From Candidatus Heimdallarchaeota archaeon (lineage in GTDB: Archaea; Asgardarchaeota; Heimdallarchaeia; JABLTI01), in the NCBI GenBank assembly GCA_019056785.1, contig DXJV01000059.1:1-64000 (forward strand): a DNA stretch of 64,000 nt, in the 5' to 3' direction. The stretch's first letter is position 1. The number at the start of each line of letters is the position of its first letter. Position numbers and translations under genes: made by a program. The notes beneath the pieces are model-generated. The model made no database searches. It was not told the origin of the DNA and saw only the letters and a list, made by a program, of their open reading frames with translations. Positions 61,285 through 63,504 of this stretch are shown here, one piece after another.

Positions 61285-61480
61285 CCTTTTTCTCTCTTCA
61301 AGATTTATTCTCTAGCAAATTTCTTCCAGCGATTTTTACTTTGTTTGGTTTTCTCGCACTAGTTTATGTAAGGCAAATATTTCCTAATTTTTTTAACGTA
61401 AGGAATACTCTGGATAAAAAAAAGTCAGGCAAAAACACACCCAGGTTGGATAAGCGTTGTTTCTCTACCAAAGTAAAAAG

Positions 61481-61763
61481 TGGCGATAAGGCGACCATTT
61501 CAAGCGTCTTGCAAACCTTCTGGGTTTTTAGGTTTACAATATTCTTTCGTGGTCTTTTTCCTTCAGAAATCCCATATAAAAGCATTACTTGACCCTTGCT
61601 TTTATAGGTCTTTTTGAAGGCTTTCTTATCGCCAAGTAAATAATAGCTCTTAATCTTAAAATACCTTTCATAAACATAGCAAAGGCAATTTTGGAAGGTT
61701 TTAACAGAAAAATGACCCCAAAAATAACATCTCGGTGTTAATTTTTTGGGGAAAGGTAAAACT
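61481..61763 (+). ncRNA. Candidate structured non-coding RNA or cis-regulatory leader (family not recognised)
   Basis: Nested helices: 61481-90/61625-34 (10 bp perfect), 61493-98/61549-54, 61509-18/61530-39, 61560-69/61611-20, 61575-84/61597-606 (10 bp perfect), plus hairpin 61716-61751. G-U wobbles mostly favour the + strand. Confidence 0.5.
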
Positions 61764-61881: not shown

Positions 61882-62190
61882 ATGAAGAGAAGATTATACA
61901 ATATTGACCCGAAAGAATTAATCCTCCGGGATCATCTTGCAATTGACCGGACTAAGCTGGCTAATGAACGCAATTTCCTGGCATTTGTACGAACTGCCCT
62001 TGCCTTTGTTGCGGGTGGTTTTGGGCTAATAAAGTTTGTCGATGAGCTTGCGTATATTGTTATTGGTTGGATCCTTGTGGGAATTGGAGCTATTGTTCTC
62101 GGTTTTGGTTTCTATCGTTACCTTAAATTCAAAAAAGTCATTGACAGTATGCAACATCCAGAAGAAGAAAGTACAACAACCTCAAATTAA
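61882..62190 (+). CDS. DUF202 (YidH-like) small membrane protein; start at ATG 61882 or 61867 rather than 61735
   Basis: LRDHLAIDRTKLANERNFLAFVRTAL and two TM helices. Confidence 0.88.
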   Translation: MKRRLYNIDPKELILRDHLAIDRTKLANERNFLAFVRTALAFVAGGFGLIKFVDELAYIVIGWILVGIGAIVLGFGFYRYLKFKKVIDSMQHPEEESTTTSN

Positions 62191-62241: not shown

Positions 62242-63504
62242 TTAATAGTCTAATTTGTCGAAAAGGCGCATTGTGTCTGGCTCGATTTCCATCTCATCGA
62301 GGAAGCGCATAGCTGCCCTGTTTGGATCACTCGAGCGATAAATGTATCTACCCACGATAATGATATCAGCACCGGCTTTCAATGCATCATTTAATGGTTT
62401 GCCGGGTTTCAAACCTCCAGCAACTGCTGCCAGTCCGCCAGTAATCTTTTTGATTTGTTTAATGTCGCCCCAAACGCTTCGTGAAGCAGACGTGCCTTCT
62501 TTCTTTGCTGCGCCGGTTTTCTGAGCATCTTCTTGATCAATGCCACGATGAAGAATAACCACTTTTGGCTTTTCTTTTAAGCGTCCCAGCATCGCCAGAA
62601 ATTCTGTCTGTGTGGTATTAAGAGAGTCAATCCAGGCATGGACTCCTCGTTTATTACAGGCACGAATGAACTCGGCAATGGTGCTTTCCGGAGCAATCCC
62701 GGACACTACAACCGCATTTGCAGTGGCATCTGCAGCAGCATTTACTTCCGCTCGTCCTACATCGAGAGTTTTCATATCAGCAATAATGTACGCGCCCGGT
62801 TTGATCTGGCGCATTCGACCGACAGTTTCTTCAATGCCGTATTTTTTGATGTAAGGTGTACCAATTTCAATGATGATCCGCTCTGACTTTGGTAGTTGTT
62901 CAACAATTTTAACTGCTTGAGATAGCGAACCAACATCTAAAGCTATTTGTAAATAAGGCGGGTTCCAAAGAGTTTGTGGTTTGAATTTCATCACGGGATG
63001 CTTAGCACGGTCCTTTTCAGCAATGAGTTTCTTGAGTGGTGGATAGTCGCTTAGAGCACGCTTAATTGCTAAGCGGGTAGCACCATAATTGTAATAATAA
63101 ATTTTGGATTCATCTTCGGCTTTTGGATGAATGTATACACTAACAATAATAACATATTTGAAAAGCTTCTCTTGGGGAATGTCACCTTCTGCAGCGGCAT
63201 CGGCGACGGCTTTAGCAACAGCCATTTGTGCCGGGCCAAAAATCTTTCCCGCTTGGTCGAGATTTTCAATTGTTACTTTCGGGACAATAAGTGTACGGGG
63301 GTGCGGTTGCAAGTTTGGTTTTATTAATGCTAACAAGGGTGTGTGGCCTTGTGAAAGCTGTGTCATACCATTTGCAAAAGCATGACCAACCGGTCCATCC
63401 TTATCGCCGATCATTAGATCAACATGCGCAAGTTCATTTCCCTTTCCCTGTAAAGCTTCACCTATGAAAAAGTCTGCCAATTTTTTTAAAACCACCGGGG
63501 TCAT
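62242..63504 (-). CDS. fae-hps: Bifunctional formaldehyde-activating enzyme / 3-hexulose-6-phosphate synthase
   Basis: Fae: GEAL..GNELAHVDLMIG, GHTPLLA, VPKVTI, FGPAQ.AVAKAV, YNYGAT. Hps: LQIALD, EIGTP, ADMKTLD, HRGID, AVAGG, IVGR. Confidence 0.92.
   Translation of the reverse strand: MTPVVLKKLADFFIGEALQGKGNELAHVDLMIGDKDGPVGHAFANGMTQLSQGHTPLLALIKPNLQPHPRTLIVPKVTIENLDQAGKIFGPAQMAVAKAVADAAAEGDIPQEKLFKYVIIVSVYIHPKAEDESKIYYYNYGATRLAIKRALSDYPPLKKLIAEKDRAKHPVMKFKPQTLWNPPYLQIALDVGSLSQAVKIVEQLPKSERIIIEIGTPYIKKYGIEETVGRMRQIKPGAYIIADMKTLDVGRAEVNAAADATANAVVVSGIAPESTIAEFIRACNKRGVHAWIDSLNTTQTEFLAMLGRLKEKPKVVILHRGIDQEDAQKTGAAKKEGTSASRSVWGDIKQIKKITGGLAAVAGGLKPGKPLNDALKAGADIIIVGRYIYRSSDPNRAAMRFLDEMEIEPDTMRLFDKLDY

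Follow-up and report, generated by a model that had tools for sequence, protein, structure and literature searches.

A three-way-junction RNA family with three paralogue sets in one family of Heimdall-group Asgard archaea

Introduction

Structured RNAs that combine strong covariation with a tertiary contact and have no known relatives are rare, and those that have been studied often proved to be ribozymes, riboswitches or the cores of ribonucleoproteins. Several described RNAs carry two arms on a helix that joins their ends. In junctions of the purine-riboswitch type (RF00167) a P1 helix supports two roughly parallel arms of about 7 bp that meet at their tips in a loop-loop contact, and the junction bases are conserved. 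The pRNA of phage phi29 (RF00044), encoded by the phage beside its packaging genes, has an end-joining helix, a three-way junction and two mutually complementary loops, whose pairing sequence differs between relatives and which pair between molecules. The Alu domain of SRP RNA (the 5′ domain of RF01857) consists of two short hairpins on a closing helix, with loops that pair via G-C, and makes up part of a 300-nt RNA together with the S domain. The end-joining helix of 5S rRNA (RF00001) bears two arms of helices split by internal loops, which point apart and have loops without contact. Eukaryotic Y RNAs and vault RNAs, about 100–160 nt in length, form a stem between their two ends, finish in a 3′ oligo-U tail and are encoded by several divergent paralogues in each genome.

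Here we describe an RNA element from a Heimdall-group archaeon, a member of the closest known relatives of eukaryotes, in a 64,000-nt stretch of chromosome (contig DXJV01000059.1 of assembly GCA_019056785.1, positions 1 to 64,000; hereafter the window). The element resembles the purine-riboswitch junction in its P1 helix, its two roughly parallel arms with complementary tip loops and its conserved junction bases, but its arms comprise about 25 layers, no riboswitch model matches it, and it appears to be a stand-alone gene with its own predicted promoter and terminator, no regulated downstream gene and three paralogues per genome. It has the elements of phi29 pRNA as well; in contrast to pRNA, its equal arms favour pairing within one molecule, it lies on an archaeal chromosome among housekeeping neighbours in conserved order, and the pRNA model does not match. 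The Alu domain differs from it in size and context, and the element has no UGUNR turn, while 5S rRNA shares its topology but neither its model nor its motifs. With Y and vault RNAs it has the general design in common but no sequence or model similarity, and the Ro60/TROVE protein (PF05731) was not found in 5 genomes, 83–93% complete, in a search that matched the control genomes.

Results

The element folds as a three-way junction of six helices

A preliminary description of the window had placed at 61481-61634, in a gap of roughly 580 bp without a credible open reading frame, a three-way-junction RNA of five nested helices with a possible kissing loop. The gap is real: the neighbouring DUF202 gene most likely begins at ATG 61884, and the element is not spanned by any conserved frame. 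Inspection of the sequence located all five helices at the positions proposed. The closing helix P1 has 10 perfect base pairs. On the plus strand, arm 1 comprises an outer helix (GACCAT 61493-61498 with GTGGTC 61549-61554) and an inner helix (TTGCAAACCT with AGGTTTACAA) whose single C/A mismatch is a G.U pair on the minus strand, and arm 2 comprises an outer helix (CCTTCAGAAA 61560-61569 with TTTTTGAAGG 61611-61620) and a perfect inner helix (TATAAAAGCA with TGCTTTTATA). The plus-strand loops are GGGT(T) at 61522-61526 in arm 1 and (G)ACCC at 61591-61595 in arm 2. The count of five nested helices was one too low, as a short helix of 3 bp within arm 1 had been overlooked; this sixth helix switches between AAG/CUU and GAA/UUC among members of the family. 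Comparison with shuffled sequences, a check that had been suggested together with the fold, gave a clear result on both strands. The minimum free energy of the 154-nt element was −52.6 kcal/mol on the plus strand, against −28.3 ± 3.5 kcal/mol for shuffled sequences (z −7.0), and −55.6 kcal/mol on the minus strand (z −7.8), and in both cases 0 of 200 shuffles reached the native value. The features of the locus are listed in Table 1 as read on the minus strand, where arm 2 becomes arm a and arm 1 becomes arm b.

Table 1. Features of the RNA locus (window coordinates; transcript ends, promoter elements and terminator are predictions)
Feature	Position	Strand	Evidence and remarks
Predicted transcript, ~155-160 nt, ends inferred	61475..61634	-	covariance-model match; strand from G.U versus A.C counts, promoter and T-run
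P1, 5′ strand UGGCGAUAAG	61625..61634	-	pairs with 61481-61490; 95.3% of cells paired; double changes in 4/10 pairs
P1, 3′ strand CUUAUCGCCA	61481..61490	-	pairs with P1 5′ strand
Junction strand J1/2, AAAG (consensus RAAG, then invariant C)	61621..61624	-	at least 90% conserved over 28 sequences
Arm a, 61 nt (arm 2 of the plus-strand reading): outer helix, small internal loop, inner helix, 12-nt loop	61560..61620	-	double changes in 8/9 outer and 11/12 inner pairs
Arm a loop GGGU, putative kissing partner	61592..61595	-	complements ACCC 61522-61525; GG core conserved, flanks vary by lineage
Junction strand J2/3, AAAAA, then conserved GAC	61555..61559	-	GAaAaAGAc 70-90% or more conserved in all three paralogue sets
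Arm b, 62 nt (arm 1 of the plus-strand reading): 5-bp helix, loop NAA/RRAA, 3-bp helix, loop AAUA/GACR, 10-bp helix, 11-nt loop	61493..61554	-	double changes in 9/10 inner-helix pairs; internal-loop sequences conserved
Arm b loop ACCC, putative kissing partner	61522..61525	-	complementarity with arm a loop
T5 run directly after P1	61475..61479	-	predicted archaeal oligo-T terminator, 3′ U tail
TATA-like box TTTTAAGA	61654..61661	-	19 nt before first base of P1; in the window seen by eye
Upstream family-specific promoter element ATGTTTAT, consensus RTGTTAW	61670..61677	-	~46 nt before P1; distance kept in sets A, B and second genus

Covariation among homologues, which had likewise been named as a check, was assessed in an alignment (A6) of 28 distinct sequences and 49 pairs. 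Standard pairs filled 91.5% of cells, against 69.6% after shuffling and 35–48% with the partners slid, changes on both sides of the pair were found in 35 of the 49 pairs, and the covariation score was 0.584, compared with 0.199 for shuffled alignments (0 of 500 reaching the observed value) and 0.07–0.15 with slid partners, all of these pairing and covariation counts being somewhat inflated by the fitting of the alignment to the covariance model. Compensatory changes were already visible in a plain MAFFT alignment of nine orthologues. All six helices are backed by covariation, including the 3-bp helix of arm b. The conserved bases that remain unpaired lie in the junction strands (RAAG and AAAAA-GAC), in the internal loops of arm b (NAA/RRAA and AAUA/GACR) and in the apical loops (GG and CC).

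Homologues form three paralogue sets at fixed loci

A DNA search of 40 related genomes recovered orthologues with 70–80% identity in 9 of the 10 genomes of the window's genus. Conservation was confined to 61466-61684, which covers the RNA and its promoter region, and the remaining intergenic DNA was unmatched; at the DNA level the window sequence is single-copy in its own genome. Covariance models were then used, one (R1) built from the minus-strand alignment and one (R2) from 21 sequences. The window RNA matched at 61473-61640 on the minus strand with 168–180 bits, and each of the 12 genomes of the window's family, which span two genera, had 2–3 full-length matches. Applied to 83 genomes of the class, model R2 gave no convincing match among the 71 genomes outside the family, the best being a 69-nt fragment of 26 bits. 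A scan of about 185,000 species genomes with a degenerate pattern returned the same lineage only, plus chance bacterial matches that the model rejected; the records matched were titled Candidatus Heimdallarchaeota or Promethearchaeati, with one labelled Bathyarchaeia. The pattern scan of JGI metagenomes yielded the same lineage and four new environmental variants. The metagenome-assembled genome named Candidatus Bathyarchaeia archaeon SMAG_U14241 (DATKZI010000037.1 and DATKZI010000014.1; L084, L090) carries two copies of the RNA with bit scores identical to those of a genome of the window's genus (G009), and its taxonomic label is probably wrong.

The window's own genome encodes a second, divergent copy of set B type at G000:C90:37490-37659 on the minus strand (L059:1501-1670), with its own TATA box and T-run. 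A tRNA gene lies about 510 nt upstream of this copy on the same strand. Overall the homologues fall into three paralogue sets, each with its own conserved gene neighbourhood and with no gene family common to all three. Set A, which includes the window RNA, lies beside DUF202 and Fae-Hps genes and is followed by a convergent PolX gene; set B is flanked by genes for a HEAT-repeat protein and a convergent pterin-binding enzyme, and set C by two paralogous glycosyltransferase genes on the other strand. Each paralogue holds one fixed, syntenic locus, and the next gene downstream on the strand of the RNA is convergent in every set examined (set A orthologues, B and C). The different neighbourhoods of the three sets thus establish that the RNA is independent of its neighbouring genes.

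In the window the DUF202 gene occupies approximately 61884-62190 on the plus strand and the Fae-Hps fusion gene 62242-63504 on the minus strand, and among relatives the neighbours are conserved on one side. The distance from the element to DUF202 ranges from about 200 to about 900 nt among relatives, and the stretch between the two is not conserved. The small DUF202 membrane protein gene adjoins the fusion gene, whose 420-aa product joins formaldehyde-activating enzyme to hexulose-phosphate synthase (Fae and an OMPdecase fold) and is approximately 86–91% identical across the genus. Other families of the class have the Hps part only and, because they lack the fusion, the set A neighbourhood could not be traced into them.

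The RNA is probably read from the minus strand

The element had been written as a plus-strand RNA in the preliminary description, and this reading has to be reversed: an excess of G.U pairs, the promoter and the T-run all favour the minus strand, with the gene running from about 61634 to 61475. The evidence for the strand is indirect. A mismatch A.C on one strand is a G.U pair on the other, and over the 28 sequences we counted 104 G.U against 26 A.C on the minus strand (98 against 22 on an earlier set), in alignments whose fit to a minus-strand model favours G.U over A.C. In set A alone, two positions in the outer helix of arm a (61560-61569 with 61611-61620) are always A.C/C.A mismatches when read on the minus strand and would be G.U pairs on the plus strand; the corresponding positions of sets B and C form G.U or Watson-Crick pairs. 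The set A mismatches are possibly protonated A+.C wobbles or a recognition site.

A run of four to six T residues lies within 1–3 nt of the end of P1 in 27 of 28 members, and a crude scorer found an A/T box of the type TTTAAATA, TTTATAAG or TTTAAAAG 18–22 nt before P1 in 23 of 28. Besides the TATA box, the promoters of all three sets have in common the motifs RTGTTAW at about −46 and CCYAATA at about −18 (61640-61677 on the minus strand in the window; L012-L033). The layout is matched by the genome's own SRP RNA gene, which has a TATA box (TTTAAG), 21 nt, TGGC...GCCA paired ends and a T-run (CTTCTTT), while the RTGTTAW and CCYAATA motifs are absent from the promoters of the SRP RNA and RNase P RNA genes of that genome. 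That these motifs are common to the paralogues and absent at the SRP and RNase P promoters therefore suggests that a dedicated transcription factor may serve the promoters of the RNA family. As judged from these sequence signals, a self-contained gene with its own predicted promoter and terminator is supported, rather than a DUF202 leader or a segment of some longer transcript.

The loops of the two arms are complementary across lineages

The lengths of the arms are nearly constant, with 59–66 nt in arm a and 61–66 nt in arm b in all members, and the two are equal within a few bases across three divergent sets, which fits side-by-side packing. The kissing loop proposed earlier (GGGTT/GACCC on the plus strand) found moderate support in the homologues, in which complementarity is kept while the sequence changes between lineages. 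Nearly all members have GG(G) in loop a and CC(C) in loop b with flanks that differ between lineages, so that the pairing is GGGU/ACCC in the window, GGAUUGR/YCAAUCY in most of set A, GGGUAU/GUACCC in part of set B, AGGGUU/AACCCU in the second copy of the window's own genome, AGGGU/GCCCU in the second genus, GGGAG/UUCCC in set C (from an internal loop of arm a) and GAGAGA/UCUCUC in one divergent member.

Since the loops are aligned in different registers between the paralogue sets, a column-wise pseudoknot count was unusable; a generous anchored search for loop pairing picked up stem strands. Loop pairing was tested with per-sequence duplex energies and permutation. Among 12 representatives, cognate loops had a mean duplex energy of −7.4 kcal/mol compared with −5.3 kcal/mol for non-cognate loops, and 36 of 20,000 permutations did as well. 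The cognate loop was not always the best partner of the twelve, and three B-type members can form only 3 bp of loop pairing. The GGG/CCC core hardly varies, and a good part of the support for the contact consequently comes from conservation and not from covariation. With moderate confidence we predict from these patterns that a GGG/CCC-centred loop-loop (kissing) contact clamps the tips of the arms.

Known RNA classes and small proteins do not account for the element

No Rfam family was matched at the locus at E ≤ 10, in the whole window at gathering cut-offs, or at five paralogue loci, and no paper on such an RNA in Asgard archaea was found in the literature searched. Thus the novelty that had been suggested for the element stands, together with its homologues and their covariation, and an undescribed RNA family with a narrow distribution, limited in the collections searched to one family of Heimdall-group Asgard archaea, is well supported. 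The initial failure to recognise a 5S, SRP or RNase P RNA or a known riboswitch agrees with the model searches, and genes for the first three were found elsewhere in the genome: the SRP RNA gene (RF01857) at G000:C14:10244-10550 with 124 bits and the RNase P RNA gene (RF00373) at G000:C6:5822-6156 with 141 bits, both above cut-off.

The identical topology and the lack of any RF00001 match in 12 genomes (0/12) raised the possibility that the element is a 5S rRNA. RF00001 (gathering cut-off 38 bits) had no match at the locus even at E ≤ 10, nor at the paralogues, and the idea was dropped when the real 5S genes, circularly permuted, were found elsewhere via weak split RF00001 matches. In the window's genome this gene lies at G000:C80:82612-82796 (L044), with matching loci in three relatives (G005, G009 and G010), and its 3′ two-thirds (GGAAGTTAAGCC...GTACTGA...GGGAAC...GCTGCGT) directly precede its 5′ third (GACGCGGTCAAAGCTGGAGGG...). 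The permuted gene is flanked by an inverted repeat, as are the loci of relatives (L045-L047, L039-L041). Across the class the RF00001 cut-off is reached in only 4 of 83 genomes.

Other assignments were also rejected. Inspection of the alignment argued against a box C/D or H/ACA guide RNA, with UGAUGA occurring in set B only and internal loops of just 3–4 nt, and to read arm b as a K-turn would contradict the covariation of its 3-bp helix. A protein-coding function was discarded: stops occur in all six frames in 17 of 28 members, the open frames of the others differ in strand and frame, and loop indels in the alignment of nine orthologues, of 1, 2 and 3 nt, are not restricted to multiples of three. 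Three open reading frames of 45–83 aa overlap the RNA in the window, at 61341-61592 (plus), 61364-61585 (minus) and 61480-61617 (plus); their frames are not conserved in relatives, and they should not be annotated as genes.

Discussion

We consider it likely that the minus strand from 61634 to about 61475 forms a gene complete in itself, whose product is a structured, stable non-coding RNA of approximately 155–160 nt that acts in trans. A self-contained unit that lies in unrelated neighbourhoods and, in the sets examined, has no downstream gene to control fits a trans-acting stable RNA. Transcription would start from an archaeal TATA-type promoter about 20 nt before the first base of P1 and stop at the T5 run directly after P1. 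The product is expected to adopt a three-way junction in which the ends are held in a 10-bp helix and two arms of about 61 nt lie side by side, their tips presumably held together by the GGG/CCC-centred loop-loop contact. The purine-rich junction strands RAAG and AAAAA-GAC, the arm b loops NAA/RRAA and AAUA/GACR and the two loop cores could then form a binding surface. Conserved purine-rich junction strands and internal loops among variable stems make an RNA subunit or protein-binding scaffold of an undescribed ribonucleoprotein the most likely role, the three paralogues per genome giving three variants; this proposal is drawn from the architecture of the RNA, and we advance it tentatively, as one that may well prove wrong.

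The layout, with a loop-loop contact on a three-way junction as in purine-riboswitch or hammerhead-type RNAs, and the concentration of conserved bases in the junction and loops would also suit a ligand-sensing or self-cleaving RNA that acts in trans, with the junction and internal loops as its pocket or active site. The architecture of riboswitch aptamers and ribozymes, to which the preliminary description had appealed, is only one possible reading of the fold, but in the sets examined the element is not in the 5′ leader of a gene on its strand, no Rfam riboswitch or ribozyme was matched at E ≤ 10, and neither strand contains a hammerhead core (CUGANGA / GAAA), the junctions being AAAG / AAAAA / GC on the minus and GC / UUUUU / CUUU on the plus strand. 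A terminator directly after P1 and, in the sets examined, a convergent next gene on the same strand would leave nothing to regulate in cis, and three divergent paralogues per genome would be unusual for an aptamer, all of which makes such an RNA unlikely. We give slightly less credence still to loops that pair between molecules to form dimers or closed rings, as in phage phi29 pRNA and recently described RNA-only assemblies. The RNA has the structural elements of pRNA, with an end-joining helix, a three-way junction and a pair of mutually complementary loops, and within a genome the loop pairing sequence is particular to each paralogue; against this, equal arm lengths in every lineage fit intramolecular pairing, the common GGG/CCC core would permit cross-pairing between paralogues, and the context is chromosomal and syntenic rather than viral.

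It is very improbable that the element is a plus-strand cis-regulatory leader, or the 5′ domain of a longer transcript, running into DUF202. The set A element always lies upstream of DUF202 in plus orientation, the plus strand folds nearly as well as the minus strand, and in one helix of set A the plus-strand reading gives invariant G.U pairs, but sets B and C have no DUF202 neighbour, the variable distance of about 200 to 900 nt spans unconserved sequence, the wobble count (104:26) speaks for the minus strand, and promoter and T-run fit the minus strand in all members. Least credible of all is that there is no RNA and that the locus encodes a small protein or is a palindrome acting at the DNA level, be it a protein-binding site, an origin or the end of a mobile element. 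The two strands fold equally well, as would be the case for any inverted repeat, but a palindrome would leave unexplained the compensatory changes in 35 pairs, the strong G.U excess on one strand and the single fixed, syntenic locus of each paralogue, and the indels and the lack of a conserved frame tell against a protein.

The covariance model can be used to annotate these RNA genes, which current pipelines leave blank, and with three conserved paralogues, promoter motifs of their own and a clear fold the family lends itself to probing, pull-downs and structural studies. Were loop pairing to join separate molecules, the RNA would be self-assembling. Under our preferred reading as a trans-acting scaffold, the RNA may be part of a ribonucleoprotein that is as yet undescribed and peculiar to one Heimdall-group lineage, with the three paralogues conferring three specificities, a possibility that we hold a little more doubtfully than the scaffold role itself. 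If this is true, archaea would have an RNA that parallels eukaryotic small stable RNAs in design, with paired ends, a U tail and a multigene family.
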